In this document: piece by piece, positions 43,247 to 63,854 of the stretch
Layout: each line of letters opens with the position of its first letter
How positions within the stretch are numbered: position 1 is the first letter of the stretch
Origin: Candidatus Heimdallarchaeota archaeon
GTDB lineage: Archaea > Asgardarchaeota > Heimdallarchaeia > Hodarchaeales > Hodarchaeaceae
Reading direction: 5' to 3'
DNA: 64,000 nucleotides
Assembly: GCA_020353515.1 (NCBI GenBank)
Contig: CP070695.1
Span: 756,957-820,956, forward strand
Made by a program: the position numbers and the translations under genes
The notes under the pieces: generated by a model
The model's database searches: none
What the model was told of the DNA's origin: nothing
The model's input: only the letters and a program-made list of their open reading frames with translations

Positions 43247-44032
43247 TTATCCTCCTAATCTATCCTGTGCAGTAAGCGCTGCACCATAAGCACTCACGAA
43301 TTCAGGTGCAATGGGATCTTTTGGTACAAAGATCTCACAATCAAGGTTTCGTTTCATTGAATCGACAAAACCAATATTATTCGCGACACCCCCAACAAGA
43401 GCCACATCCTGTTCAATACCAACTCTACGAGCCATACTTGTAATTCTATCTGCTATTGCATCATGTACAGCACGTACAATGTCTTCCTTCGGGGTTTTTT
43501 GATGTATCAATGATACTACCTCTGACTCAGCAAAAATAGTGCATTGTGCATTCATTGGGACTGGTTTTGTGGACTTTAATGAAAGATCTCCCATTTCTTC
43601 GATATCTAGTTCCAAAGCTCTTGCCATCGCTTCAGTAAATGCCCCAGCTCCAGCTGCACATTTCTCATTGATACCGAAATCAACAACTTTTCCTTCTTCA
43701 TTAAGCCGGATAGCTCTACCCTCTTCTGCACCAACATCGATCACAGTTCGAACAGATGGGAAGATTGTTGATATCCCCTTTGCATTTGCACTAATTTCAG
43801 TTACGGTATCATTTGCGTGGGTAGCTGCATCCATTCCTGCACCTGTAGCTGTTAAATGTTCAATATCATCTTTTGTGATTCCAGCTTCTGTTAATGCTTT
43901 ATTTAATGCTTGCTCCTCGGACGCTTTCTGATCAAATCCACTCGGGGCTGAAGAAATTGCTAAAATTTCTCCATTTTTTAAAATAATCGCTTTTGTGTTT
44001 TTGGCTCCAAAATCCATACCTATTGCTACCAT
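43247..44032 (-). CDS. bzdP: Benzoyl-CoA reductase, bzd-type, subunit P (ATP-binding)
   Basis: GMDFGA, ATGAG, DVGAEEGR, NEKCAAGAG, NAQCTIFAESE. Confidence 0.9.
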   Translation of the reverse strand: MVAIGMDFGAKNTKAIILKNGEILAISSAPSGFDQKASEEQALNKALTEAGITKDDIEHLTATGAGMDAATHANDTVTEISANAKGISTIFPSVRTVIDVGAEEGRAIRLNEEGKVVDFGINEKCAAGAGAFTEAMARALELDIEEMGDLSLKSTKPVPMNAQCTIFAESEVVSLIHQKTPKEDIVRAVHDAIADRITSMARRVGIEQDVALVGGVANNIGFVDSMKRNLDCEIFVPKDPIAPEFVSAYGAALTAQDRLGG

Positions 44033-44052
44033 ATGATTTCACCTTGGTTTTA

Positions 44053-45366
44053 TTACTCCGCTACTAACTCTATTCCAAGAGACTCCATAAAAGCGTCAAT
44101 TCGTGTCATTGTCTTAGTTAAATCAAATTCTCTTTCGTCTCCCATGTTACCCTCAAATGGCATTACAGGAAACCCAGCTTTTTGAATTGCTAAACGATTT
44201 TCTGCAATTCCAAGGCTTAATCCTTCACATCCTCTATTAAAGTGTAGAAGAACTCCATTTAGCTTCCATTCACGAGCGATTCTAATCATCATTTCTGATT
44301 TTAATTGCGGATGATAGAAATGCTGCCACTCTGGCTTACTCAGGTTCCATTCAGCAAGAGCCCTAAGAGCTTCGTCTCGATTAGTAATCTCAATTTCAGG
44401 AATAGCCCTTGGTCCCCATGTCCCATCTTCTTGATCTTCCCAAAGTCCAATTAGAGAAAATGTGTAAAGACTACCAACTGAAACAACACCATATTTCTCA
44501 AGATAGCGAAAAACCTTTAAAAACGCCCAAGGAGGTTGTGTATCAGTCATAATACGACATTGTTCATTACCAACAGCAGCTACTCCTCGTTCCACACGAT
44601 CTTTCACTTCTGGATAAAGATCTTTCTCATAAAAGTCAGCAGTCCATTGGGCTGATTTTCTTAATGTACCAAAAACATAGAGAGAATACATGGTCTTTTC
44701 GTCTAATGGTGCTGGAATTGATTTATTTAGAGCACAAATTGCTGCCCAATAATGACAACTCCGAAACTCATTCTGTACTGCTTTGATGAGGAGTTCATCA
44801 TCATATTCTCGGCCTGTTACGTTTTCAAGCCATTTAATACCGTCGTGCATTTGGCCAACAATATAATTGAGTCTACTATCAGTCAGTTCTTCGTAGGGAC
44901 CTACTGAAACATCAATACTATACATTGGAATCCCTCCTTCTAGATCACTAGCTACTTGATACCATTTTGAATGCGAACAACAAATATGATCCTGCCAGAT
45001 AAAATCTGGCTTCGGGAATTCCTCGGAAAATTGGGGCCATGCATATTTGTTAAGAATGATCGAACCCCAATAATTCCGCATATATGAGCAAAGATCACGG
45101 GCAAATCCCTTCGTTTCAATGGCTTCTTGACATTCTAACGCGAAATCTTTGTTTGCTGCAATGGTTGCTCCATATGGTTCACCAGTCAAAGACCATACAT
45201 CGTCACCCAAACCTGAAGGAATGGCATCAAAAGACCACGCGCCTCCTGCCCATCGTATTCCTCCTTTTTCATGAGCTTCTGCAAAATCTTTGTAATAATT
45301 CTCTCGAAGAGATTTGGCTTTTCCCCAACACTTTAGTCGTTCTGTAGGGTATTTAGTTGAACTCAT
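44053..45366 (-). CDS. bzdO: Benzoyl-CoA reductase, bzd-type, subunit O
   Basis: [44 protein letters not shown]. Confidence 0.92.
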
Positions 45367-45377
45367 TATTATTCCTC

Positions 45378-46541
45378 CTAAAATAAGTCCTCCTCTCTGA
45401 TAATTTCAAGAAAAGCCTCCACCCGCGTCTTAAATTGACCAATTGGTACTGTGACATCTAATTCAAGGAACAAAGTTGAAAGACCATTTTTTTCTAAGGT
45501 CTCTTTTATGATTGGAATGTCCAGCTCATGTGGATCACAAAATTTCTGTTGGATCAAAATAGCTCCTTGAACATCATAATCTTTAGCCATTTTTACAATA
45601 TGATCAAGCCTCGTTCGCTGGGGCCAATCCTTGCTAGGACATGAAACCCTTTTTACATATCGTTCAGCTATTGCCGTTAACGGATCACCTGTTGGATTTA
45701 CTTCTTCTTGAAAGTATCGGGTTCCAGTACAGTGATCATCAGTCACAAATGTCGCTCCTAGATTTTCAACCATTGATATAAATTCAGTATCATCATCTTC
45801 TGAACCTAAGATCATAAGTCGTTCACCTGAATCCCCAATGTTTCTGGAAGGAAGATTTTGTAGAAGTGATTTCAGTGCCTTGTTATGATCACGTTTTTCT
45901 GTAGTCTGACTTGATACAACCATATACATCGCCTCAAGTCCAGTCAATGGTGGATTACTACCCTTTCTTAGTTCATATACTTGGTTCATAAGACGTCTAT
46001 TAGTATTCATGATCTCAATTCCACGTTTGAGATCTTCTTCAGTAATAGTTCGACCTATCCATTCTTCAACAGATGCTTTGAACTTAACAAGCTCTTCTCT
46101 TAAATAGGGGATGGCATGGGGACTTTGAACGTTCATTGGATGAGGTAAATAATAACTGTAATCTGTAGGGATATGAATATCCCAGCTTGTATAAGCCTGT
46201 CTAATATGTAGACAGCTTTGAGCGATCATAATTCCATTTAGATAATCAAAACGTCCTTTTAGTCCCTGTGCTAGGCAATCTCGGCAAAATGGACAAAACA
46301 TTGCAAAAATGTGCGGCTCCGTCACATCTTGTGGTTCATGACTACCTAAAATGCGAACTGGAAGTATGTCAGCGGCGTATAGTATCTCTTCGGGGACATA
46401 GGTACAAAAATAGCCCATCACTTTTCCCCCAGTACGCTCTTTCCATTCTAAAGCATAATCATGTCGATTCTTGTACCAATCCCTGAATTGATCAAATAAT
46501 TCTTTTTCTTCTTTGTGTACGAGTTCCATCAAATTGAACAC
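45378..46541 (-). CDS. bzdN: Benzoyl-CoA reductase, bzd-type, subunit N
   Basis: [53 protein letters not shown]. Confidence 0.92.
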
Positions 46542-48021: not shown

Positions 48022-48528
48022 TTGGCAAATAAGGAACTGGAAGAAAGAATGACAAAATCCAACTTGAATAATGAAGAGAAGAAAACCAAAGAAAAAAGAA
48101 AACAAAAGGGATCGCTTGTAGTATCAAAAGATGAGTTCTTTCGATTACGGCCAGTTATGAGCCCATATGTTACTCAGAGAAAAAAGACAGAAGAGGATTT
48201 GTTACTAGAACTAGATCTTCGGGAGCTAAAAAAACGAAGCTTTCTTAAAAGGTTGTTTCCGACGCCAGATACTAAAAAGGTACAGCTAGATAAATTGGGG
48301 ATGGAAGTTTTCCTTTTATGTGATGGCAAACATAAGGTTAAAGATATCATCAAGATATTTCAAGAAAAATATCGTTTAACACCTACTGAAACTGAAATTT
48401 CCATAAAGAAATACTTAATGAGTCTTACGAAACGCCATCTCGTCGGATTTGTAATACCAGAAAAAATTGCTCAAAGAAATCTGTCCTCTGGAGAGGTTAT
48501 TGAAAATATAATACTAGAATCAGAATGA
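48022..48528 (+). CDS. Stand-alone PqqD-like / RiPP recognition element (RRE)-fold protein
   Basis: KKVQLDKLGMEVFLLCDGKHKVKDII...FQEKY...YLMSLTKRHLV fits the PqqD pattern (L-x-x-x-G-x-x-x-F/W-x-x-x-DG-x-x-x-V-x-x-I). Confidence 0.8.
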   Translation: MANKELEERMTKSNLNNEEKKTKEKRKQKGSLVVSKDEFFRLRPVMSPYVTQRKKTEEDLLLELDLRELKKRSFLKRLFPTPDTKKVQLDKLGMEVFLLCDGKHKVKDIIKIFQEKYRLTPTETEISIKKYLMSLTKRHLVGFVIPEKIAQRNLSSGEVIENIILESE

Positions 48529-48540
48529 TATTTAGAATTT

Positions 48541-49533
48541 TTAATTAGCTTCAATTGCTAATTTTGTCATTTTTTCTATTAGTTCTCGGATTCCTATTTC
48601 AATTTTTCTCTTCGTAAAGAAAATAATGCAATAAATGTCATTTTTCTTCAGATTTAACCATAAATAGGTTTCTAAGTGTGTATTTCTAAGATTAAATGGT
48701 ATTTTCTTCTCTAATGTGTGTTTATTCTTCCAAGTAACTTTTTTTTTCTTATAAATTAATTTCGTGAAATTTTCAGGATTATAATTTGAGGGGATTCCAG
48801 GAAGATGCTTTTTATAATAAGCTTTATACCAGTCAGGGATCTCTTCGATATCTGTAACTTTTTGATCAGCGAGACCAATACGATAAGCTAGAAAATTTAA
48901 TTCATCATTATAAAGATGAATAAAAGTTAAACCAATTAAAAAATCTTTTTTTTTCAGATTCATACTGAGATAGGGGGAATGAATTTGGAGATTAGGTGCT
49001 GTCCATACAGAAAACTGACTTTCAGGATGACAATTAATCTGGGAAATTATATTCATTATGCGAGGTTTTTCAATAGATTTTTCCTTTGTGGCAAATTGAG
49101 ATGGGCAAATAATTAATCTTTGAGTTTGATCACAGATCCATACTACAATATATCCTTGAATTCTTTCGTTTTCCAATTCCCAATAGATGTACTTTGCTTT
49201 ATGATCATTTACTTTTCTTTCGCCTTCAGTCCTTATTTTAATTTCTTTCTTTGATTTTTTTAAGGATTCAAAAAAATTTTTGATAACTTTAATCAAATCT
49301 GGAGGATTTTTGTCATATTTAGCCCAGCTGACCTCTAGTTTTTTCTCCTTAGCATCACGAAATCCAAAATAGCCTGTATTTTTGCTTTGTCTTTTTTTTC
49401 TTTTTTTTTCAAAAATCATTTGCCATCCAATTGGAACACTGATTAAGAAATATTGCCAACCAAATGCTTGAGTTTTCATCTTAATTCCATTGAGAAAATC
49501 AAAGGTATTTATAATAGTTACCTCAAAAATCAT
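48541..49533 (-). CDS. Hypothetical Lys-rich protein, possible PsbP/Mog1-like fold
   Basis: FLISVPIGW...LEVSW...VNDHKA...VWICDQTQRLII; convergent on the PqqD-like gene. Confidence 0.6.
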   Translation of the reverse strand: MIFEVTIINTFDFLNGIKMKTQAFGWQYFLISVPIGWQMIFEKKRKKRQSKNTGYFGFRDAKEKKLEVSWAKYDKNPPDLIKVIKNFFESLKKSKKEIKIRTEGERKVNDHKAKYIYWELENERIQGYIVVWICDQTQRLIICPSQFATKEKSIEKPRIMNIISQINCHPESQFSVWTAPNLQIHSPYLSMNLKKKDFLIGLTFIHLYNDELNFLAYRIGLADQKVTDIEEIPDWYKAYYKKHLPGIPSNYNPENFTKLIYKKKKVTWKNKHTLEKKIPFNLRNTHLETYLWLNLKKNDIYCIIFFTKRKIEIGIRELIEKMTKLAIEAN

Positions 49534-49866: not shown

Positions 49867-50238
49867 ATGTCTAAATCGGAAATCCAGTGTCCTTGTGGTC
49901 AATATATAGAAGATTATAGTAAATATTTACTTCTTCACTTAAAAAAGGAGATGGGAGAGATTGATATCTTGTGTCCCAATGAATTCTGTTATTTGAGAGA
50001 ACTTGGATTTTTAAAATTCCACATTGACACTACAGGAAAAATTAAGTTTGATGTTGGTAGATTTTATGCTCCTTATTCAACCTGGAATGCAACAAGGATT
50101 ACCGAAGAGACAACAGTAAAAATACTTAAACAACACCTTGTAGACATAACTGAAAAACTTGTTGATTGGGCTAAGATAAGAAAAGGTGTTTTTAAAACAA
50201 AAGAAGAAATAAAAGAGAAACCAGAGGTTTCAACATGA
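49867..50238 (+). CDS. Small Cys-rich (CPCG...CPNxxC) putative metal-binding protein, first gene of the ABC operon
   Basis: IQCPCGQ and DILCPNEFCYLRELG; ATGA overlap with the permease. Confidence 0.75.
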   Translation: MSKSEIQCPCGQYIEDYSKYLLLHLKKEMGEIDILCPNEFCYLRELGFLKFHIDTTGKIKFDVGRFYAPYSTWNATRITEETTVKILKQHLVDITEKLVDWAKIRKGVFKTKEEIKEKPEVST

Positions 50239-50837
50239 GTCTTGACCTACCTGATCCTCATTTTTCCCTTTATGAAGTTATTCATCTATCATTTGCAAAT
50301 ATTAGACGGAGGTTTTTACGCTCTGTAATTACTGCATTTGGTATTATCTTGGGAATCGCTTTTATGTCAGCACTTTTAACTAATTCTCTGATATTAGGAT
50401 TAATGCAAGCCGAAACTGGGGTGGAAGCTTATCAATTCTGGTTGGTTGGTATATCTCTAATTGTTTGTTTCGGTGGGATAACAAATTCCATGTTGATGGC
50501 TGTGAATGAAAGAGTGAAAGAAATTGGAGTCTACAAGTGTATAGGTGGATTAGATGGTCATATTGTACGATTGTTTATTATAGAAGCTTTATTTTTAGGA
50601 GCACTTGGCGGATCAATAGGAGCTATTGCAGGTTTAGGAATAGGACTAATAATCAATCTAAACCGTTTTTCACTAGATGAATTAACAGCTCAAATAACGG
50701 CCAATTCACTTATTTTTATATTATTATTTGGTGTTTGCTTTTTCATTGCGCTTTTTCTTTCTGCTCTTGCAACATTCATACCAGCGAGAAGAGCAGCGAA
50801 TTTATCTCCAGCAGAAGCTCTAAGATATGAAAATTAA
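50235..50837 (+). CDS. Minimal FtsX/MacB-type ABC permease with almost no extracellular domain
   Basis: NIRRRFLRSVIT...GI...ITNSMLMAVNERVKEIGVYKCIG...IPARRAANLSPAEALRYE. Confidence 0.9.
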   Translation: MSLDLPDPHFSLYEVIHLSFANIRRRFLRSVITAFGIILGIAFMSALLTNSLILGLMQAETGVEAYQFWLVGISLIVCFGGITNSMLMAVNERVKEIGVYKCIGGLDGHIVRLFIIEALFLGALGGSIGAIAGLGIGLIINLNRFSLDELTAQITANSLIFILLFGVCFFIALFLSALATFIPARRAANLSPAEALRYEN

Positions 50838-50851
50838 TTTGTTGATGGTTC

Positions 50852-51574
50852 ATGAGTCTTGAGGAATATGTTGTAGAAATTGCGGATGTTTTCAAGGAAT
50901 ATCAGTTAGGAAAAGTTACCGTATCAGCATTACAAGGCATTTCATTCAAGATTTATCGTGAGGAATACATTTCTATAATGGGTCCTTCAGGAAGTGGAAA
51001 GAGTACATTATTCAATGTGATAGGAGGCCTTGATACCGTCACTAGTGGTGAAATCTACATAGATCAAGTAGATATTGCTGAGCTTGATGCCTACGAGTTG
51101 GCCTGGCTTAGAAACCGTAAAATCGGTTATATATTTCAGACATTCAATTTGTTATTAACCTTCACTGCTCAGGAGAATGTAGAAACCCCAATGATCTTTG
51201 CTGGAGTCCCTAGAGAAGAAAGGAGGAAAAAATCTAAAGAGAAACTTGAAATGGTAGGACTTGGGGATAGACTGAAAAATAAACCTGGACAGTTATCTGG
51301 AGGACAACAACAACGTGTTGCCATTGCTCGAGCATTAGCCAACGATCCTGCCATAGTTCTGGCAGACGAACCAACAGCGAATCTAGATCTAGTTACTGGA
51401 TTGGAAATAATCGAACTGTTAAGGAGATTGAACACTGAGCAGGGTACAACCATAATTACAGCAACTCACGATCTTAAAATGATTAATATAAGTGATCGAA
51501 TTATATGGATTCGTGATGGACGTGTAGATCGGATTGAGGATCATACTGACGTACATGTAGCTACCACATCTTGA
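50852..51574 (+). CDS. ABC ATPase, LolD/MacB type
   Basis: [43 protein letters not shown]. Confidence 0.95.
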   Translation: MSLEEYVVEIADVFKEYQLGKVTVSALQGISFKIYREEYISIMGPSGSGKSTLFNVIGGLDTVTSGEIYIDQVDIAELDAYELAWLRNRKIGYIFQTFNLLLTFTAQENVETPMIFAGVPREERRKKSKEKLEMVGLGDRLKNKPGQLSGGQQQRVAIARALANDPAIVLADEPTANLDLVTGLEIIELLRRLNTEQGTTIITATHDLKMINISDRIIWIRDGRVDRIEDHTDVHVATTS

Positions 51575-51577
51575 TAG

Positions 51578-52315
51578 GTGGAAAAGATGTCAGAGGACAT
51601 TACTGTAAAATTAGATGATGTGTGGAAGACATACATTATGGGAAACGAAGAGGTACAAGCCTTGAGAGGGATTAACCTTGATATTCTTCAAGGTGAGTTT
51701 CATGTTATTATGGGGCCTTCTGGATCAGGAAAGACTACATTTCTTAATATGGTTGGTGCCCTTGACTTTCCGACAATGGGAGAAGTATACTTTGAAGGTG
51801 TTCCTCTTTCTAGTCTTACTAAAAAACAATTGGCTTCCATACGTTCCTACAAGATAGGTTTTATCTTTCAAACCTTTAATCTTGTTCCAGTAATAACTGC
51901 TCGGGAAAACGTTTCATTACCTTTAGTTTTTCAAAGATATCCTCGCGAGGAGAGAAGAAAGAGAGCAGAAGAGATATTAAAAAGAGTTGGATTAGCAGAT
52001 CGAATGGATCACACCCCAGATGAACTTTCAGGGGGTCAACAGCAGCGAGTGGCCATCGCTCGGGCTTTAGCAGGTAAACCAAGTTTAATTCTGGCTGATG
52101 AACCAACAGGTAACTTAGATTTAAAAACTGGGTTTCAAATTGTCGAATTATTACGGGAATTAAGCCAAGAGACTGGTGTGACAGTTATTAACTCAACTCA
52201 TGATCTTAAACTAATCGATATTGCAGATAGAATCTCTTGGTTAAGAGATGGTGAAATAACACGAACCCAACAAAAGCTAGATGTATCAATTACAAGTGTT
52301 GACGTGACAATCTGA
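51578..52315 (+). CDS. Second ABC ATPase, LolD/MacB type
   Basis: [31 protein letters not shown]. Confidence 0.95.
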
Positions 52316-52665: not shown

Positions 52666-55137
52666 TCAGGAATCTGACCACGTTGCCTTAATGAGAATAG
52701 CCTCCTCCTTTTCAAAATCAATTGGGATACCTTCTGTTGCTTCGTCCGTTGTTACTTTGAATTTAGCTCTTTTTTCTATTATATCGAGAGATTTAATTTC
52801 AATTGTCCAAAAACCATTTCCTATTCTCATAAATATAACTTTACACGCTAAAAATCTCGGAACTGGATTATAGGCAATGAAATTAAGCTTAAGAGGAGGA
52901 AATATACTTAAAGCTTGAAAATCAAATAGATCTAAATTTAAAAGCATGATTTCTGGTTTATTACATTTTGCCAAGGCTTCAAACATTAAATATAACCAAA
53001 TTACCTCTCCTGAACCATAAATCTCCCTGCCAATTACACCTGTACGAGAACCCTTTGGAGCTATTTCTTGAGATTCTGAAAAATGAGGAGGTGTTTCAAG
53101 CATCTCAAGATCTTCAAAAGGAATGAATTTACAGGGAGTTTCCCAGCGGGCTGGATATATAAATTCTTGATTTAAAACATTTGAGAAGTAGTAGAAGCTA
53201 TTTATTCTAATAAGATTAAAAAATTTCAGCATTCCATGAATGGGGAATTTTATTTTAGTTGAATTTATAATAACCTTGAGGAAAATTAACCATGGATATA
53301 TGGATTCTAAGTTTTCTTTCATTGCTGGGTATCTAATACCAACACATGCCATTACTAAACCTTTAGTGCGACGTTTTCCTTTCCAATTAAACGAATTATC
53401 GTCATACCAGTAGAACATTCGTAGTTCATTAAGAATATTAAAATATGCACTTTCTATATGTAATTCATTGCCAGTAATTCGATATAATTCTGTTAATCCT
53501 GCTATACCATAAGCAATTTCAAGAGGTTCCCAAAACAATTCATCTGGGGAGAATTTCATGAGTTTCTTTGCTGCATTTTTAGCTTCTAGAAGGAATCGAT
53601 CCTCTTTAAATAAATAAAAAGCCTGAATCATAATATACAAATAAATCCCCAAACAAGCAAAGTTTTTGGCTTTCATCTTCCAAAGAATATCTTTTTTGCC
53701 TCTTGCTTTAATTAAGGCATTTTTTCTTTTATGATCTGAATCAAGTTCATCTTTAAGCGGTTTTAATGAAAAGGGGTCATAAAAAGCAGTGATCTCATAA
53801 TTATGTCCTTGTACAAATCTTATCACTTCATTAATCATTTTCTTAAGACTAGAGATATAATTTAAATGAACAGGAACCAATGGAATTAATCGAATAAACC
53901 AAGCAAATCTAGTAATAGGTTCAAAAAAATACCAAGAATCACCAATCGAGTACTTTGTTGGCTTCATTATTCTAATCCCATGAAAATCATCATACTGAAT
54001 ATTATTATACAGGAAATTTGTTTTTGGATCAATAAAACTTTGGAGAGACTTACTAGTACGCTTAACATGATCCATTTGAGAGTCATTTTTGTGAAGTTGC
54101 AAGTAAAGTATCCATGGAGGTAGAAGATCAAAAAATGTCATTGTTTCAAATGTATTTATTTTTCCTATTGTTTCTCGACGATTAAATTCTGATTTATCAG
54201 CTACATAAGCGTGATATTTTGGTGAATTTGGATCCACCCAACAGAGTTCTTCTTTCATAAGATCAGTAATGCAACCTTTACTAAATTTCCACCATGAGAG
54301 GTTATTAGAAGGAAATGGTGTGTAACCTGAAATCAATGTGAAGCATCTAGAGACAAGAGCTGCTACTGCTTCCCATTTACTTGGTTTCTCATAGCGATAA
54401 TTTTGAGATAAAAAAAAATCAAAAATCATTTCAAAATTTGCTGGAATTTCTATACGTTTTGGAAGCTGTATTCTATTAAGTAGTCCAAACGAACCATCAA
54501 CTTTAGTACCACATTCGTATATTGAAAATCTTTCAAAAGTTTCTGGAGACATCCAATTCATTTTAGAAAAATCTAAAAAGAAATAGGTTTCAATTCTTGA
54601 ATCAGGATTCCAAACATAAGCTGCTGGCATATCATTGGATTTCCATTCATCTGTGGGTGGTGTATGTCGAGTTGGTTGATTAATTGTAACAGCTTCAGTA
54701 CTATTATATTTGGGTAAAAGCTTCATTCTAATTTCAGGTGCAGTGTTATCAAACTGAATCTTTTCGTTGAAAACTACTTTTATTCGAATATGAAACCATG
54801 GATACGTTTTTTCATTGACAACAATATCCATGAATACTTCAATATTTTTTATTACAGATTTATTCTCTAAAAATATATGAAAAGAATTATCTGTCCGTAT
54901 TAATTCAGTCATTTTTGATGGATTTACATTAAATTGGTTTTCAAGTGAAATCAAAGGCAACAATAAATTCTGTTTCCATTTAGAAGACTTACATGCTGAT
55001 AAGATTATGTAAATTGTACCTTCCTTGTGTGAGAACGAGATCTTTTGATTATTCATTATAAAATTAATATCTTCTGTGATCTTTTTTTCCTCCGTTTCTT
55101 GGAATTTACAGAGTAGAAAATTTGTTTTTAACTTCAA
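52666..55137 (-). CDS. Large soluble protein: N-terminal beta-rich region plus putative alpha/alpha toroid (six-hairpin glycosidase/LanC-like fold)
   Basis: Helical repeats such as AFYLFKEDRFLLEAKNAA and YGIAGLTELYRITGNELHIESA; GDSWY and REIYGSGE motifs; no signal peptide evident. Confidence 0.55.
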   Translation of the reverse strand: MKLKTNFLLCKFQETEEKKITEDINFIMNNQKISFSHKEGTIYIILSACKSSKWKQNLLLPLISLENQFNVNPSKMTELIRTDNSFHIFLENKSVIKNIEVFMDIVVNEKTYPWFHIRIKVVFNEKIQFDNTAPEIRMKLLPKYNSTEAVTINQPTRHTPPTDEWKSNDMPAAYVWNPDSRIETYFFLDFSKMNWMSPETFERFSIYECGTKVDGSFGLLNRIQLPKRIEIPANFEMIFDFFLSQNYRYEKPSKWEAVAALVSRCFTLISGYTPFPSNNLSWWKFSKGCITDLMKEELCWVDPNSPKYHAYVADKSEFNRRETIGKINTFETMTFFDLLPPWILYLQLHKNDSQMDHVKRTSKSLQSFIDPKTNFLYNNIQYDDFHGIRIMKPTKYSIGDSWYFFEPITRFAWFIRLIPLVPVHLNYISSLKKMINEVIRFVQGHNYEITAFYDPFSLKPLKDELDSDHKRKNALIKARGKKDILWKMKAKNFACLGIYLYIMIQAFYLFKEDRFLLEAKNAAKKLMKFSPDELFWEPLEIAYGIAGLTELYRITGNELHIESAYFNILNELRMFYWYDDNSFNWKGKRRTKGLVMACVGIRYPAMKENLESIYPWLIFLKVIINSTKIKFPIHGMLKFFNLIRINSFYYFSNVLNQEFIYPARWETPCKFIPFEDLEMLETPPHFSESQEIAPKGSRTGVIGREIYGSGEVIWLYLMFEALAKCNKPEIMLLNLDLFDFQALSIFPPLKLNFIAYNPVPRFLACKVIFMRIGNGFWTIEIKSLDIIEKRAKFKVTTDEATEGIPIDFEKEEAILIKATWSDS

Positions 55138-55332: not shown

Positions 55333-57483
55333 GTGATTTATATGAGTGACAAAATTATTGAAAAGGAATCGCAAACAGGACCTAGAACAGGTTTGACTAT
55401 TAGATCTTTAATTATTGCTTTAGTGATTCTATTCTTCTGGGGATTATTAAGTATATTTAGTGGAAATTTTGGTCAGGCTCCCCAAATATTCATAGAAGAA
55501 ATGTCCATTCTCTTTCCGTTCTTTATTTTGGTTTTTGGTCTTCAAGCTCTTGAAAGAATTAGGATAAGGGGAATTAAATTAAGTAGACAAGAGCTTACCT
55601 TTATTTGGGCAATGTTAATTGTTGGTATTCCTATTACAAGTAGTGGTTTTATTGCTGGAAGATTGTTACTTAATGCAATGTATTCTCACCAAAGTGATGA
55701 ACCTTTCGCACCTTTATCTGGATGGGCTCCAGCATTCTGGGCTCCTTCTGAAGAAGAAATCCTCAGAGCCTATGCGGGTGGAGTTCTTCCTGATTTTACG
55801 GAATGGCTAATCCCATTAGCATTCTGGGGAATTACATGCATTGCTTGGGCTTTTATGTGTTTATTTTTGATCCAAATATTTAGAAAACCTTGGGTTGATG
55901 TTGAAAGACTGGCTTTTCCATTAGCTCAACCTGTCCAAGAACTCTTAGAATCTCCTTTAGCCGTACCAGAGGAGAAAAAGAGAAGATATTTTTGGCTTGC
56001 ACTTGGGTCACTACTTGGTATTAGTTATTCTTCACTTGAATTCTTACGTGTTGCTTTCCCTGATTGGGGTGATTTTCTTGCGGATGTAGATATATTTGGA
56101 TGGATACTAGGAAGAGCTTGGTCTATAACAATTGATTTTGGGGAAGTATTCGGTTTAAGTGCGATTTTACCAAATGCACAACTTGTCGCTCGTCCAGAAC
56201 CCGTTATGATTGCTGCATTTCTATTAGTTTCATTGAATGTCTTGCTTTCTGGCATAATTTTTTGGCTTTTTTTCTGGGTTTTATTACCTGTAGGTATGAC
56301 TGAATTGGGAATAATAGATGCCCCTGCTTCAGTTGCAGCCTCTCCTCCTTATATTGACTTAGGATTTGGGCGCGTTGGGGGAATTTCACTCTTTGCTTTT
56401 GGAGAATTTGGAATGCTTTTTGGCGTTGTTATTTGGGCTGTCATTCTACAACGTCGATATCTTTGGAGATCAATAAAAGCGATATGGGATCCCGCTATAA
56501 TAGATGAAAGTGGTGAACCTATATCGTATAGAACTGCTTGGATTGGTTTTCTACTTTGTGGGGTCATTTTTTTCTCAAGCTTACTTTTAAGTGGCTCTCC
56601 CCTTGTGATGGCGATATACACCGTCATATTCTTAGTAATAGGATATATTGCTGGTGCCCGTCTTAGAGCAGAAACCGCTGGAATGGGAATTGGTCACCCA
56701 GGGTATATTCATCTGCATGGGATGCATTCTGTTCGGCTTTTTGTTGGTGAAGAAAACGCTGGAACAGGTGGTTTTTATGTAACCTCAATGTGGATGCAGT
56801 TTTTTCAGAGAGATGCTGCTCCAACCACCCCAGCCATTTCTTCACTTGAGGCGTACAATATCGCTAGAATCACTAATACGCGTACAAGAGACATTTTTGT
56901 TGCCCATAGCATCGGTATCCTAGGAATAATATTGTTGTGTCTTATTTCTTGGCCAATTTTTGCTTATTCGTATGGATTAGCAAACGAATGGTCAGCTGAA
57001 GCAGGACACAATCAAGATTATAGCGAATCAACTATGGAGCTAGCTGCAGGCGGATTTTGGGATCATAGAAGTTATGAAATTGATATCTGGGGTCAAGCCA
57101 TTTTAGGAATGGTTTTTGCTATAGGTCTCAATATACTTCGATTAAGTAGACCTTGGTTACCATTGAATCCGATTGCTGCACCTATCATTTTAAGCCTAAG
57201 AGGGCCTTATTGGTGGTTACCTATGTTGTTTGCTTATCTTATTAAATTCCTCGTTGTCCGGATTGGTGGAACAAAAGCTTATACTACTTATCTCCTTCCA
57301 GCTGCGGTAGGATACCTTATTGGAACTGCAGGTGTTTGGGGTTATGCCCTAATAGTAGTAATGATTCCTCTACTCTTTCCATTTGTAGCAGGAGCCTTTT
57401 TTGATTTAATAGTTCTTGCTATTTGGGTATTATCTATCTTAGCAACAATTCTATATTTAATTCTAAGTTTAATAAAGAGATGA
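55333..57483 (+). CDS. OPT-like polytopic membrane protein (DUF6785/DUF6784-like)
   Basis: GLTIRSLII, LSRQEL, WLIPLAFW, RKPWVDVERLAFPLAQ, RLRAETAG, PWLPLNPI, IKFLVVRIGG, PAAVGYLIG; more than 15 TM. Confidence 0.75.
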   Translation: MIYMSDKIIEKESQTGPRTGLTIRSLIIALVILFFWGLLSIFSGNFGQAPQIFIEEMSILFPFFILVFGLQALERIRIRGIKLSRQELTFIWAMLIVGIPITSSGFIAGRLLLNAMYSHQSDEPFAPLSGWAPAFWAPSEEEILRAYAGGVLPDFTEWLIPLAFWGITCIAWAFMCLFLIQIFRKPWVDVERLAFPLAQPVQELLESPLAVPEEKKRRYFWLALGSLLGISYSSLEFLRVAFPDWGDFLADVDIFGWILGRAWSITIDFGEVFGLSAILPNAQLVARPEPVMIAAFLLVSLNVLLSGIIFWLFFWVLLPVGMTELGIIDAPASVAASPPYIDLGFGRVGGISLFAFGEFGMLFGVVIWAVILQRRYLWRSIKAIWDPAIIDESGEPISYRTAWIGFLLCGVIFFSSLLLSGSPLVMAIYTVIFLVIGYIAGARLRAETAGMGIGHPGYIHLHGMHSVRLFVGEENAGTGGFYVTSMWMQFFQRDAAPTTPAISSLEAYNIARITNTRTRDIFVAHSIGILGIILLCLISWPIFAYSYGLANEWSAEAGHNQDYSESTMELAAGGFWDHRSYEIDIWGQAILGMVFAIGLNILRLSRPWLPLNPIAAPIILSLRGPYWWLPMLFAYLIKFLVVRIGGTKAYTTYLLPAAVGYLIGTAGVWGYALIVVMIPLLFPFVAGAFFDLIVLAIWVLSILATILYLILSLIKR

Positions 57484-60400
57484 TGGTGGCCCTAATGACA
57501 AAGTCGAAACTTGTCATCATCTTTTTTTTTTTCCTTATGTTTAATGTTATAGTTCACGTTTTCACGAATGATTTCTGCAGTAATATTATAAGTTGGGAAG
57601 AAAATAAGACAATTACTAGAGAGAACATTACAGGGAGAATAGATGACCTAATAGATTTCCTAGACTTAAGTAATCAAATAAATGAAACCTATTTTGGGAA
57701 CATTGAAGGCCATATAAAGACACTTTCAGAATTCGGAAGTCGTGTAACTGGCTATCCTGGGTATGAGCAAACGGTTGATTATATTCTTGATTTTTTTCAA
57801 AATCAAAATCTATCGAATGTCGAAACAATGTCATATCCACTATTAGTACCACTTGAAAAGAATACTCACATAGAGATAAAAGGGGAAAATTATACAGCAT
57901 ATGCTCTTACTCCTAATTCTGTTCACTCATGCAAAACACCTCCGCATGGAGTATCTGGAAAACTAATTTATGGTGGATCAGGTAGATATTCTGATCTTGA
58001 TGGAAAGAACATCGATGGATCAATCGTTGTCATGGAATTTAATACGAACGATAATTGGCTTAATATAGCTGGTTTAGGAGCCAGAGGAGTCATTTTCCTA
58101 GCCCCTAATGATACTAATCGTTTTGAAGCTGAATCAAAATCAATAGATATTCCTCTTAATTTTCCCCGTTTTTACATTCGCAACTATACGACTATAGAAG
58201 CTGTTAAAGGATTCGCACAACAGTATAATCAAACTGTAACTCTTTATTCTGATATCGAAATGACTATGATTGAAGCCAAAAATGTGATGGGAATATTATC
58301 TGGTAAAAGTGATGATCAAATCATTATTTCTGCTTATTTTGATTCTTCATCAGTAGTTCCTTCTATATCACCTGGAGCTGATGAAGCATGCGGGATCGCC
58401 ACTCTCTTAGAATTAATACGTGTTATAAATGATAATAAATTTATACCTCAAAAAACAATCATGTTTTTAGCTCTCTCTGGTCATAATCAAGCTGCAGCAG
58501 GAGCAAGAGAATTTGTCTATCAAAATTATGAGTCATTAAATCGGGAATCAGGAATTAAGCTTTTTCTTACATTAGATCTTTCTGCTTCCAATTATAAGAT
58601 TGGTATAAATCCATACGGTTATTTGTATCGATTTAAACTACAATTTACTACAGCGACAAATTTAGAAGGAAGGATAAAGGATGTTGGAGAAAAATATTTG
58701 GTTGAATACGCTTCACATATTCGTGAAGCCTCTACCTACAATTTTGAAGTGAAATCATATGTCAGAAAACAACGATTCGAGGATATTGCTCCGATTACCT
58801 TTGTGGGGGATCAGGAGCCCTTCGTTGCAAGTAATGTCATTGGATTATCTTTTTTTACTAGCGAATCTCATCGATTAAGGTTTAATACTCCCTTTGACCT
58901 TCCTAAATATTTACATATGGATCACCTAAAGTCACAAGTAGTTTATTCTATTTGTGCTGTAGCTCAGCTTATCTTAGAGGCGAACTTAGATCAAGTATTA
59001 GACTTAGAGCATAAAGATTTCTCAATAAGGCATACAACTCACGTTGGATACGGGATTATTCAAGGCCATTGTAAAGAACGTAATGAAACAACCGCTTGGT
59101 TTTCTGACGTTCCAGATGTTGTTATCCGTGTTTCATCTTGGGATCCAAGTCGTGGACTTTATGGGGAATACACCTATCTCACTAAAACTGATAATGATGG
59201 ATTCTTTGAAATTCATGGAATTTCCTCCTCTCAGCCTGATATTAACTTAGAATTCATTGCTGAGGCGTATGAATTTGATTCTGAAGGTAATTTAATCAAA
59301 GCAACCAATTTAGGATCATATGGGCAAACTTTTGAGCGGTCGAATAAGCTCAGAAGTAAAACAATTACAATTAATCCTACTGTGTTTAAGTGTGGCACAA
59401 TTTCATTATTTGAAGTAACACATCCCTATACTCAAGCTCTCTCTGCTGGTTCACTTACCTATCAAGTACTAGATCCAGAAACAAGAAATCTTTACTTTTC
59501 ATTTGGATATATTGGGGCCAAATCAGTTAGTTTAGTTTTTCTTAATCCCAATACACCCTCAGTAATGGTTGGAGAATTACCAGATGCAGTGTTAGGGGTT
59601 TATATTACGAATTCAAGTGATGAAAAACCGAGAGGAGAGGGCTATAAGGTTCAAATGGGCGAACATCAGAATCTAGGGATTTCATCATTTATGACCTCTT
59701 TAGATCTTCAAGCAGCAACGAAAACTTACGTGGATTTATACACAAGCTATAATATTTATGATTCATTGGTTGATGATACTTTTGGAAGAGCAATTAGTCT
59801 TATGGATACTGCTCTTCTTCAGAAAAATGATCTAGAATACTCAAAGGCAATTGTTACTATCAAGGAAGTTCAAACTTGGTCTTTGGACGCTTTCAAACAA
59901 GCTAGACGAGTTATTGAGGATGGAACATCGACCACAATATTTTTTGCCATCCTGCTTCTTCCTTTCTCATTCGCACTTGCTTCCCTACTTTTTACTTTTG
60001 AAAGTGGTATTAAACGAATTATGGTGACTAGTATAATATATGGAACAACCTTAGCATTTTTCTATATCATTCACCCTGGTCTTCATTTATCATCTAATAT
60101 TTTTATGATAATAATAGGAATAATTGCTATTATTTTTGTATTTCCAGCCTTCTACATGATTTATCAAGAAGGGTATGATTATTTAAAGAGTTTAAGAGTC
60201 AAGATAATTGGAGCGCATTTTGCTGATACTAGTCGAACTTCAACTATTTTGATTGCGATGAGTACTGGTATCGCTAGAATGAAAAAACGAAAAGGAAGGA
60301 CAGTAATTGCCCTCTCTGGCATCGTACTCATTACATTTTCCTTAACACTTTTTACATCTGCGAGTACACAGGTTGCTGTGTCCACTAGAGGAGTGGAACT

Positions 60401-61946
60401 AGAAACACCTTATAATGGTGTCTATTTTAGAGTGAAGGATTGGGTAGAGCCGCTATCTGAGGATTTATATGATTTCCTAAACGTGAAATATGGTGAAACA
60501 ATAACTATCTCTTCCCGCTGGTGGTTATACCCTCCATCACAGGAAGCAAATGGATTTTTGAAAGTAACAAACATAAATGGAATAAATAGTTGGGAAGGAG
60601 AGGCAGTATTAGGTTTAACCGCAGATGAACCTTCCTTTCACCCAATTATTTCATCCATGTTAATTGAGGGTGCTTGGTTTAATAGCTCTAACGGTATGGA
60701 GTGTATTCTCTCTGAATTTTCTGCTAATGCTCTAGATGTTCAAGTTAATGACTCTATTATTTGGTCTGGATCTAAATTCAATGTTACTGGTATAATAAAA
60801 GAAGAATCGTTTGATGAGATTCAAGATTTTGATGGAGAAGAAATTACTCCAAAAAATAATCGTGCACCTTCTCCAAGTGTTCATTTACCTACTCGATTGA
60901 TATTTATTCTTCCAGCAGAAACAGCCAAAGACTTTGGTGCATCTTTATACTCAATTTCCATCTTGGCGAATGAGGAAGTAGCTATTGATATCGCTGACTC
61001 TGTTTCCTCGACTTATGGACGTTATCTGGAAGTTAAGGTTGGTAATAATGGTATAGTGTCAACTCATAAAAGAGTTATACAAGATCTTGGAAGAGGATTA
61101 GTTGAAATGGGAATACCTCTTACTATAGCGATTTTATTGATGGTTAACACCAGCATAAGTACTGTGTATGAATCAAAAAAAGAAATTGCGATTTTCACAT
61201 CTTTAGGGTTGGCACCTTTCCATATCGCTGGATTATTCTTGGCTGAATTTCTGGTTTATGCTGTTATAGGTTCTGTGGTTGGTTACTTGGGTGGAATAAC
61301 CATAGCAGTTATACTTTCGGCTATAGGAATGTTTCCTGAATCACTAGCTATTAATTATTCATCTGGATCTGTAATTAATGCTTTAGGTTTTGGAATTGTT
61401 GGGATCCTACTTAGCACAATATATCCCCTTCGAATTTCTGCGAAAATGTCTGTACCTTCAGTTCGAAGAGCTTGGGAACTCGCAACCTCTCCTCAAGAGG
61501 ATGGTGTTCATTGGTCAATCCCATTACCATTTGTTGCTGCAACTGAACATGAAGCAGAAGGTATTATTCAATTTTTACACGAATTTTTTATTATCTATGA
61601 GTCTGAAAGTGTTGGCGGCGCATTTTTTGCTCAGAATATTAGAGTGATTGAGAAAAAAGAACCTAGGCGAGAAAAACACCTCAAGGCTACAGTTAACTTG
61701 GCTCCGTTTGACATGGGTTTGAAACAGAATGTAGATATTTACACTTATTTAGACGAAATCAAATATCGATATATATTTGAGATTGAATTAGAGCGATTAG
61801 AAGGAATATTATCAGCATGGGAAACCTCTGTAAGACGTTTTGTTGACAGTATTAGGAAACAGCTCCTAATCTGGAGAAGTCTTTCAAAAGAAGAGAAAGC
61901 AACTAAATCAAAGGAATTTCAGATTGGAATACAAGAGGAAGAATGA
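57480..61946 (+). CDS. Fusion protein: signal/TM + PA domain + degenerate M28 peptidase + beta-sandwich + TM bundle + MacB/FtsX permease + cytoplasmic C-terminal domain
   Basis: GSRVTGYPG, PA (GKLIYGGSG...GSIVVM), IIISAYFDS...PGADEACG, RMKKRKGRTVIAL, TVYESKKEIAIFTSLGLAP...FLAE; ATG at 57480 overlaps the upstream stop (ATGA). Confidence 0.85.
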   Translation: MMVALMTKSKLVIIFFFFLMFNVIVHVFTNDFCSNIISWEENKTITRENITGRIDDLIDFLDLSNQINETYFGNIEGHIKTLSEFGSRVTGYPGYEQTVDYILDFFQNQNLSNVETMSYPLLVPLEKNTHIEIKGENYTAYALTPNSVHSCKTPPHGVSGKLIYGGSGRYSDLDGKNIDGSIVVMEFNTNDNWLNIAGLGARGVIFLAPNDTNRFEAESKSIDIPLNFPRFYIRNYTTIEAVKGFAQQYNQTVTLYSDIEMTMIEAKNVMGILSGKSDDQIIISAYFDSSSVVPSISPGADEACGIATLLELIRVINDNKFIPQKTIMFLALSGHNQAAAGAREFVYQNYESLNRESGIKLFLTLDLSASNYKIGINPYGYLYRFKLQFTTATNLEGRIKDVGEKYLVEYASHIREASTYNFEVKSYVRKQRFEDIAPITFVGDQEPFVASNVIGLSFFTSESHRLRFNTPFDLPKYLHMDHLKSQVVYSICAVAQLILEANLDQVLDLEHKDFSIRHTTHVGYGIIQGHCKERNETTAWFSDVPDVVIRVSSWDPSRGLYGEYTYLTKTDNDGFFEIHGISSSQPDINLEFIAEAYEFDSEGNLIKATNLGSYGQTFERSNKLRSKTITINPTVFKCGTISLFEVTHPYTQALSAGSLTYQVLDPETRNLYFSFGYIGAKSVSLVFLNPNTPSVMVGELPDAVLGVYITNSSDEKPRGEGYKVQMGEHQNLGISSFMTSLDLQAATKTYVDLYTSYNIYDSLVDDTFGRAISLMDTALLQKNDLEYSKAIVTIKEVQTWSLDAFKQARRVIEDGTSTTIFFAILLLPFSFALASLLFTFESGIKRIMVTSIIYGTTLAFFYIIHPGLHLSSNIFMIIIGIIAIIFVFPAFYMIYQEGYDYLKSLRVKIIGAHFADTSRTSTILIAMSTGIARMKKRKGRTVIALSGIVLITFSLTLFTSASTQVAVSTRGVELETPYNGVYFRVKDWVEPLSEDLYDFLNVKYGETITISSRWWLYPPSQEANGFLKVTNINGINSWEGEAVLGLTADEPSFHPIISSMLIEGAWFNSSNGMECILSEFSANALDVQVNDSIIWSGSKFNVTGIIKEESFDEIQDFDGEEITPKNNRAPSPSVHLPTRLIFILPAETAKDFGASLYSISILANEEVAIDIADSVSSTYGRYLEVKVGNNGIVSTHKRVIQDLGRGLVEMGIPLTIAILLMVNTSISTVYESKKEIAIFTSLGLAPFHIAGLFLAEFLVYAVIGSVVGYLGGITIAVILSAIGMFPESLAINYSSGSVINALGFGIVGILLSTIYPLRISAKMSVPSVRRAWELATSPQEDGVHWSIPLPFVAATEHEAEGIIQFLHEFFIIYESESVGGAFFAQNIRVIEKKEPRREKHLKATVNLAPFDMGLKQNVDIYTYLDEIKYRYIFEIELERLEGILSAWETSVRRFVDSIRKQLLIWRSLSKEEKATKSKEFQIGIQEEE

Positions 61947-61955
61947 GGTTAATGA

Positions 61956-63854
61956 ATGTCTGACGAAAATGAGTCGATTCTTTCAACAGAGCACGATTTA
62001 CCACAAGAATCCTTTCAAAGTGGATTGACTTGGCGTGTTGGTTTAGCTATTGTCTATAGTGCCCTTATAATACAACCATCGGCTATCTATTTATATTTTG
62101 TGACAAATCAATGGTTTATTGGAGCAGTTCTTAATACAACAATCGTTTTATTCGCAGTTCTTGCAAAAATGGCTGATAATCCACTCTCAAAGCAGGAGGT
62201 ATTTATTATGATAAATGTCACAAGTACTGCTTTGGGTATGGAAATGATAGTTGCTTTAGTCTTCAATTATTATCTGAAACATCATCCGTCTACTGTAGCG
62301 ACATTGATTGACGGTGTATCTCTCACAACACTTATTCCTAATTGGTATGCCCCAGACTATTTTGGTCCAATTCAAACACTATTTAATCCTCTTTTTATTC
62401 TACCTCTGGGCTTGCTTATTCTGAATGCATTATTTGGAAAAGCAACTGATATTTCATTAGGGATTGTATTCAATTACCTTTACACTAAGGTAGAAGTACT
62501 ACCGTTTCCTACAGCTGAAGTCGAAGCTGAACGATCTAAATCTTTAACATGGGAGGACAAAAGAAAATTACAGATATTTTCTCTTAGTGCAATTATTGCA
62601 AGTTTTTTTGGAATAATTCTTTATGCTTTTCCTCTTGTGATAGGTATTCCGTTGATTCCCCTACCTTGGTTTGATTTTAATGCATCAATTGAGGGTTTTC
62701 TCCCAGGGGCTTCTTTTGGTATTGCTACAGATGTGATTGCATTTGCTACAGGTTTTATTTTACCTATGAATGTTGTTGTGTGCATCCTAATTGGTTCAAT
62801 TGTTGTAAATATAATAGTCAACCCATTTCTAGTAGCGAATAATATGCTTCCAAGATGGGAAAAGGGCATGACACTCCTTGATACATTTAATACATCTCAA
62901 TTGGACTTTTGGCTAGGGTGGACGGTTGGTTTATTGATTAGCGCATCCCTCATCCCTGTACTTCGTAACCCACGGATTTTTATAAAAACAATCAAGGATT
63001 TGAGGAAGCTAAGTCAAGGGAAAGGAGACGAATTGGAAGGTGGAGCTCCTAAATTGAGTATATTATTGGCTTTTTTCTTGCTTGGGACGTTGGGTTCGGT
63101 TGTGGTAACATTCTTACTTATACCTGACCTCCCTATTAGATTAATAATAGTTTTAATTATTCTAACAGTTGGTTGGAGTTTTATCTCATCTCTAACAATG
63201 GCGTATGCATTTGGCATTACCGCAAATCTTCCATTAATTCCATACATTAAGGAATCAGCTTTTGTTGCTGTAGGAGCTCCTATTGGAGGGGAAATCTGGT
63301 TTGCACCATTAGTTATCTCTCAGGGAGGGGCTGGATGGGTTGCAACTTTTAAAACAGCAGACTTAACTTTTACAAAAAGAGGAAGTTTGATAAGAGCACA
63401 TGTTTTGGCCTCGTTTGTGGCATGGGGAGCAGGGATTTTTTGGGTTTCTGCTTTATTGTCTATTGCTCGTGTTCCCTCGATAATATTCCCAGTACCATTT
63501 TGGGATCTTGACGTTGGTAGGATTATAACATTTGTTTCAGAACCAACTGTGGTTATAAATCCTTTAATATTAGGAATTTCCCTCGTTATCACTTTAATTC
63601 TTTATATTATTGAATGGGGAACACCAATACCTATTTCAGTGATTTCATTAGCTGTTGGTACAACAACAGCTATTCCTTATGCAATTACTACATTTCTGGG
63701 GGCACTTTTCGCAAAAATCCTCAAGAGGAGAATGATAAACTGGGATACTGATCGTGCTATCATTGTTGCAGGTTTAGGAGCTGGACTTGGTATTGTTATT
63801 TCATTATCAACCTTTTTAGCTTTAATTCTGAACACAATAGCTTTGCCATATTAG
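61956..63854 (+). CDS. OPT-superfamily-like polytopic membrane protein
   Basis: SGLTWRVGLAI, PLSKQEV, VEVLPFPTAEV, PLPWFDF, LPGASFGI, IWFAP, AGLGAG; about 15 TM. Confidence 0.75.
   Translation: MSDENESILSTEHDLPQESFQSGLTWRVGLAIVYSALIIQPSAIYLYFVTNQWFIGAVLNTTIVLFAVLAKMADNPLSKQEVFIMINVTSTALGMEMIVALVFNYYLKHHPSTVATLIDGVSLTTLIPNWYAPDYFGPIQTLFNPLFILPLGLLILNALFGKATDISLGIVFNYLYTKVEVLPFPTAEVEAERSKSLTWEDKRKLQIFSLSAIIASFFGIILYAFPLVIGIPLIPLPWFDFNASIEGFLPGASFGIATDVIAFATGFILPMNVVVCILIGSIVVNIIVNPFLVANNMLPRWEKGMTLLDTFNTSQLDFWLGWTVGLLISASLIPVLRNPRIFIKTIKDLRKLSQGKGDELEGGAPKLSILLAFFLLGTLGSVVVTFLLIPDLPIRLIIVLIILTVGWSFISSLTMAYAFGITANLPLIPYIKESAFVAVGAPIGGEIWFAPLVISQGGAGWVATFKTADLTFTKRGSLIRAHVLASFVAWGAGIFWVSALLSIARVPSIIFPVPFWDLDVGRIITFVSEPTVVINPLILGISLVITLILYIIEWGTPIPISVISLAVGTTTAIPYAITTFLGALFAKILKRRMINWDTDRAIIVAGLGAGLGIVISLSTFLALILNTIALPY

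Follow-up and report, generated by a model that had tools for sequence, protein, structure and literature searches.

A type VII ABC system with an M28 pseudo-peptidase head in a Heimdallarchaeota genome, in bacteria and in other archaea

What might a peptidase fold do once its catalytic site has been replaced and it has been joined to the permease of an ATP-binding cassette (ABC) system? The question is raised by a gene (57480..61946, + strand) in a window of 64,000 nucleotides from Candidatus Heimdallarchaeota archaeon (contig CP070695.1 of assembly GCA_020353515.1, positions 756,957 to 820,956 of the forward strand), whose product of 1488 amino acids (aa), P0001, is a fusion of an M28 pseudopeptidase and a MacB/FtsX permease. 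A preliminary description of this DNA had proposed a substrate-recruiting receptor moved by ABC ATPases, with an ectodomain possibly related to eukaryotic nicastrin and nicalin. The fusion belongs to a real and unstudied system, a type VII ABC variant with a pseudo-peptidase head, on which our literature search found no paper; its architecture, the loss of the canonical site, the conservation of new residues, the gene linkage and the distribution are established directly. As to its role, we consider the case evenly balanced that P0001 is the large subunit, the one that captures the ligand, in a conserved type VII (MacB/LolCDE-like) ABC machine, probably one for uptake. The interest rests on the machine itself, that of a large family spread across bacteria and archaea. 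If the reading holds, an uptake-type job would be added to the type VII systems, along with a prokaryotic example, testable in cultured Armatimonadota, of a receptor made from a peptidase fold.

Architecture of the fusion and remodelling of its metal site

The fusion gene is present as a single copy in the 4.94-Mb genome. Its ATG at 57480 overlaps the stop codon of the DUF6785 gene before it (ATGA), and a TTG upstream, at 57423, was rejected as the start in favour of this overlapping ATG. All parts of the product lie on the + strand. Hydropathy places a signal peptide or membrane anchor at aa 11-29 (57510..57566) and about nine transmembrane (TM) segments in the protein. Pfam recognizes Peptidase_M28 (E 6.9e-14) and FtsX (E 4.7e-11, 43 bits, above the cut-off), with a weak match to MacB_PCD (E 0.0012), which reaches 37 bits in one relative; the permease part matches LolF, MacB and LolE. 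The M28-fold head (aa 60-505; 57657..58994) contains a PA insert at about aa 124-262 (57849-58265), a feature that the preliminary description had missed. One member of the family, P0092, has a parvulin-type peptidyl-prolyl isomerase domain (aa 246-312) inserted in the PA region of its head; LysM insertions were not seen in the five long family members scanned.

Behind the head, a single carboxypeptidase-regulatory-like beta-sandwich had been described. The fold class was correctly recognized (transthyretin/CnaB-like), but the AlphaFold model and fold searches give two tandem sandwiches (aa 520-638 and 639-734; 59037..59681), and in the model these are followed by a three-helix bundle (aa 735-814; 59682..59921), a stalk that runs into the membrane. 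The motifs GIIQGHC (aa 525) and TKTDNDG (aa 568) are found in the sandwich region, in which Pfam CarboxypepD_reg is matched by 3 of 72 family members. Asn711 of an N-x-S sequon (aa 711-713; 59610-59618) is invariant in 121 of 121 aligned full-length relatives, including bacteria, and an invariant G-x-G adjoins it in the same alignment. Three additional TM helices (aa 820-892; 59937..60155, from hydropathy) stand outside the MacB unit, which is made up of an amphipathic helix, a TM segment, an outer core domain (about aa 960-1200) and the rest of the TM segments (60237..61421, from Pfam). A conserved C-terminal domain of no known family, probably cytoplasmic (aa 1315-1488; 61422..61943), is the diagnostic mark of the fusion family; PDB sequence searches with the region behind the M28 head and with this domain returned no significant match.

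Residues of the head were mapped onto the Aeromonas aminopeptidase (1AMP). Four positions have been exchanged (H97 is Y286, E151 is H335, E152 is N336 and H256 is N469), while D366 preserves the ligand D179, and a residue has been deleted from the D117 loop, which has the acids D301/E302 in it. The motifs on which the preliminary description relied all lie where it had placed them: SAYFDS at aa 284 (58329), PGADEACG at aa 298 (58371), SGHNQ at aa 333 (58476) and FNTPFD at aa 468 (58881). Its statement that the metal and catalytic motifs are replaced thus applies to H97, E151, E152 and H256, but not to D179 or to the D117 loop, where an acid is still found. The pocket residues are Y286, D288, D301/E302, H335, D366, D444/E446, R465 and N469. 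Conservation was counted over 207 representatives sharing less than 70% identity. Glu occurs at neither EE position in any of them, the last His ligand (H256) is present in three, His97 in 41%, and the full five-ligand set (His97, Asp117, Glu152, Asp179, His256) in none. The position of the general base, Glu151, is His in 91%, and conservation is likewise high at D366 (89%), D444 (85%), E446 (91%) and R465 (84%), and in the PA domain at K220/R230 (97-100%). The family forms a single clade separate from the active M28 enzymes of Asgard archaea (SH-aLRT 99). As judged from these alignments, a canonical two-zinc aminopeptidase is ruled out, and because a new conserved set, H335/D366/E446, appears in its place, the site was remodelled once and then maintained, not decayed. 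A head that lacks the canonical dinuclear site and is fused to a MacB/FtsX permease, as first described, is therefore borne out by the site mapping and by Pfam.

The best matches of the head in the sequence and fold searches are bacterial aminopeptidases and the transferrin receptor. The PA-domain M28 aminopeptidases (Aneurinibacillus AM-1, 2EK8; Bacillus subtilis YwaD/BSAP, 6HC6; Pseudomonas PaAP) give the best profile matches (115 and 82 bits) as well as the best fold matches; they share the M28 fold and carry the PA insert in the same place, and the fusion head keeps both the N-terminal segment and the PA insert of the YwaD/AM-1-type enzymes. Unlike them, it lacks the EE pair and the last His, has His at the general base and a deletion in the D117 loop, and is joined to a multi-pass ABC permease. 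The differences from transferrin receptor 1, a eukaryotic dimer that crosses the membrane once, are its helical dimer domain, its lack of an ATPase and its other replacements; we claim no kinship with it. GPAA1, a subunit of the glycosylphosphatidylinositol transamidase, differs in that a PA insert of the fusion type is not shown, the ABC module is absent, and the match is far weaker than that to the bacterial peptidases.

Conserved gene partners and a possible uptake machine

The most constant neighbour of the fusion is an OPT-like polytopic membrane protein of 632 aa (61956..63854, +), relatives of which match PF03169. On the other side lies a DUF6785/DUF6784 polytopic membrane protein (55333..57483, +, from Pfam), some relatives of which also match Pfam OPT; as paralogues, the two gave no significant BLAST match and a weak stretch only with hidden Markov models, and no paper on DUF6785 was found in the library searched. 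Further upstream are a PqqD/RRE-like protein (48022..48528, +, from Pfam) and orf330 (48541..49533, -; 330 aa, no known family), both conserved members of the system, a small FtsX permease of 200 aa without an outer domain (50235..50837, +, from Pfam), and two LolD/MacB-type ABC ATPases of 240 and 245 aa (50852..52315, +). The ATPases that had been postulated are thus conserved nearby; their designation as cognate, and that of the small permease as the likely second transmembrane domain, rest on gene linkage. A protein of 823 aa with GH127/GH76-like features (52666..55137, -) is conserved in loci of the source genus; it has no Pfam match, and its language-model neighbours, unnamed bacterial clusters and GH127/GH76-like proteins, are a lead only.

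A search with a single Armatimonadota query protein found 77 loci, mostly from Armatimonadota, which are to be read as kin within one phylum and not as independent cases. The operon order there is fusion, OPT-like, orf330, PqqD-like, small FtsX and ATPase, and the OPT-like gene is present in 22 of the 26 long Armatimonadota loci. All six operon genes and the DUF6785 gene are grouped around the fusion of the window in a rearranged order that is kept in relatives, so that the six co-occur in bacteria and archaea. OPT and DUF6785 neighbours are seen again at more distant loci, often together with glycoside hydrolases and sugar oxidoreductases. In 22 Armatimonadota loci (for example L048:14954-15697), the operon has a DUF2092/LolA-like gene in its vicinity.

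The FtsX-type transmembrane domain, the MacB outer core domain and the LolD/MacB-type ATPases are those of the type VII ABC systems (MacB, LolCDE/LolF, FtsEX, YbbAP-TesA, BceAB), which a 2025 preprint called unique to bacteria (10.1101/2025.05.16.654284). The present system differs from them in the N-terminal head of 800 aa, the three extra TM helices and the C-terminal domain of the fusion, in having a second permease without an outer domain and, as fixed partners, the OPT-like, DUF6785, PqqD-like and orf330 proteins, and in its presence in archaea. In MacB-type proteins, ATP binding drives movement of the outer domain, and no substrate is carried across the protein's own membrane (PMC5985334).

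In the favoured reading, the head would no longer be an ordinary aminopeptidase but a tethered binding receptor, much as the transferrin receptor reuses the same fold; a receptor-like role is plausible. The large and small FtsX permeases would pair and bind the ATPase or ATPases, the head would capture its ligand in the rebuilt pocket, and ATP-driven movement of the outer domain (mechanotransmission) would load or unload the head towards the OPT-like carriers. A MacB-type fold offers no channel for transport, so the cargo would cross via the OPT-like and DUF6785 proteins; a peptide or a glycopeptide/oligosaccharide is the likeliest candidate. A single importer composed of an OPT-type carrier and an ATP-driven type VII motor, a pairing found in no paper, is a tentative proposal, to which we would give somewhat less than even weight. 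A complex prediction for the TM parts of the fusion with the OPT-like protein scored 0.01, which is no answer and was not used either way.

Several points weigh against the capture-and-uptake reading. Complex formation, ligand and direction of transport are steps that we infer; an adjacent OPT or ATPase gene is absent at some loci; and in a paralogue of about 1250 aa the MacB outer domain (aa about 970-1200) is cleanly missing in its entirety. In addition, the conserved His/Asp/Glu residues might just as well form a catalytic site built anew: 75 of the 207 relatives retain His97 and Asp179 together with an acid in the D117 loop, sufficient for one metal, and an E151H variant of the Aeromonas aminopeptidase (2ANP) is described as functional in its title. 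A head that is an active hydrolase or transferase, using one metal or a metal-free His/Asp/Glu set, with the motor presenting substrate and the OPT-like proteins importing the products, is the rival that we take most seriously, although we consider it unlikely. The His at the general-base position and the retention of D366, D444 and E446 would suit it, and YbbAP-TesA provides the precedent of a type VII motor coupled to an outer hydrolase (10.1101/2025.05.16.654284). His97, on the other hand, is replaced by Tyr or Phe in 42 of 42 bacterial members, as it is by Tyr in the fusion; position 302 is Ser, Gln, Asn or Ala in most bacterial members; and H335, invariant (100%) in bacterial members and in the source genus, is Tyr or Phe in 8% of all members. 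Given this freedom, a binding pocket fits better than one shared catalytic mechanism.

In a second rival, the machine would serve envelope or protein biogenesis, gripping exported proteins, lipoproteins or cell-wall glycopeptides and releasing or maturing them in the manner of LolCDE or FtsEX. Such work is usual for type VII ABCs (PMC5985334), the PqqD/RRE peptide-binding protein is a core member, and both the parvulin domain in one ectodomain and the LolA-like gene of the Armatimonadota loci would be at home in it. The carriers, however, have very different envelopes, the neighbours are often sugar-catabolic genes, and a patchy presence within one genus together with several copies of the system per genome fits a niche nutrient function; we regard biogenesis as improbable.

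Distribution and the relation to nicalin and nicastrin

The closest named homologues of the fusion come from Hodarchaeales/Heimdallarchaeota. Searches for the C-terminal domain that marks the family were positive in 13 of the 21 genomes of the source genus and in one of 280 other Asgard genomes, and a census of the head in Asgard genomes gives the same picture. A profile search (E up to 1e-30) puts the family at 596 clusters at 50% identity; its named non-Asgard members include the TACK archaea (Thermoproteota, Bathyarchaeia, Nitrososphaerota) and Latescibacterota. In a full-length FastTree phylogeny, most rows of which carry no taxon label, copies labelled as bacterial make up one clade (100). 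Those of Hodarchaeales also group tightly, and their clade branches from within the rest of the copies, where the few labels present are archaeal. This fits a late acquisition by one Asgard lineage, with the donor unassigned in a mostly unlabelled tree. The fusion family is no Asgard trait, and the special Asgard link once suggested for it is not supported: it was found in one Asgard genus and one further Asgard genome, but widely in bacteria and TACK archaea.

The proposed tie to nicastrin and nicalin fared no better. The likeness is that of an M28-like outer domain without metal in a membrane complex, with a similar spacer and an LLELAR stretch; the HxD-to-GA spacer is of equal length in nicalin and the family, with Pro in the same column. 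Pfam Nicastrin on the fusion stays below its cut-off of 25 (12.8 bits, E 0.086). Against a profile of the family core, nicalin comes second at 54.3 bits, level with YwaD (56.7); the Aeromonas aminopeptidase reaches 49 and the transferrin receptor 42. Nicalin does better still (62.7 bits) with a control profile built from active Asgard M28 enzymes. With the family profile, nicalin keeps 87% of its control score, the transferrin receptor 55% and active enzymes about 35%; the high relative rank of nicalin is expected where two sides lack the same catalytic columns. Pfam Nicastrin finds 14 of 21 controls (best 1.5e-6) and 38 of 82 family members (best 3.1e-6), and the best such matches inspected in Asgard genomes carry intact M28 motifs. 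With a profile covering just the later half of the core, there was no match to nicalin and almost none to active enzymes either.

In nicalin, moreover, the replacements are other ones, with His97 kept, Ser at D117, Gly-Lys at the EE pair and no deletion in the GA loop, and nicalin and nicastrin match in the core motif region only; the match to bacterial PA-peptidases starts at the N-terminus and extends across the PA domain. Nicalin has a single transmembrane domain, at the C-terminal end of the chain, and a TMEM147/APH-1 partner (PMC7505659), against the nine or so TM segments and the ABC permease of the fusion; no APH-1/TMEM147-type partner was matched by Pfam among ten neighbours, no genome-wide search having been made. 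NOMO (9c7u_B) was found with the sandwiches at Foldseek rank 14 (E 7.8e-5, TM 0.21/0.31), in a list where fimbrial and pilin domains of Bacteroides stand both beside and above it; the sandwiches and NOMO have only a broad fold in common. Topology places the fusion outside the nicalin/nicastrin family; on the controls run, a special sequence tie is not supported, and the likeness is best read as an independent loss of catalysis within one superfamily.

Hodarchaeales are a proposed sister group of eukaryotes, and with Hodarchaeales as the closest named homologues of the Asgard members, the ectodomain might be a prokaryotic sister or source of eukaryotic nicalin and nicastrin, passed on by way of Hodarchaeales. 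The second rank and the retained score of nicalin, the shared spacer and the NOMO-like fold class would speak for this; the control results, the differing residues and topology, the nesting of the Hodarchaeales clade among other archaeal copies and the failure to find the family in most Asgard genomes searched speak against it, and we think it very improbable. Were it true, and had eukaryotes taken the domain from the Hodarchaeales copy, the lumenal domain of BOS/gamma-secretase would have originated in an ABC machine, as the receptor for its cargo, a consequence for which we hold out equally little hope. The eukaryote-origin angle is weak on the tests run, and no paper was found that joins nicalin, nicastrin or gamma-secretase to Asgard archaea.

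Divergent copies and flanking genes

Genomes of the source genus often hold a second copy, the paralogue of about 1250 aa (L139:5341-9099, L141:9941-13690, P0008 and kin), in which the M28 head is kept. A third, divergent copy of 1652 aa (L125:1135-6093, genome G211) adjoins a homologue of orf330 and falls outside the Hodarchaeales clade, which suggests, from the tree, a separate acquisition. At the locus of a Nitrososphaerota member (L147:10001-14662), the OPT, DUF6785 and ATPase genes are all absent within 10 kb, and two unannotated genes follow. In G211, a protein of 1029 aa with a weak C-terminal RING-finger match (L139:1659-4748) adjoins the PqqD-like gene. Just upstream of the system in the window (43247-46541, -) lie genes resembling a benzoyl-CoA reductase/2-hydroxyacyl-CoA dehydratase module.

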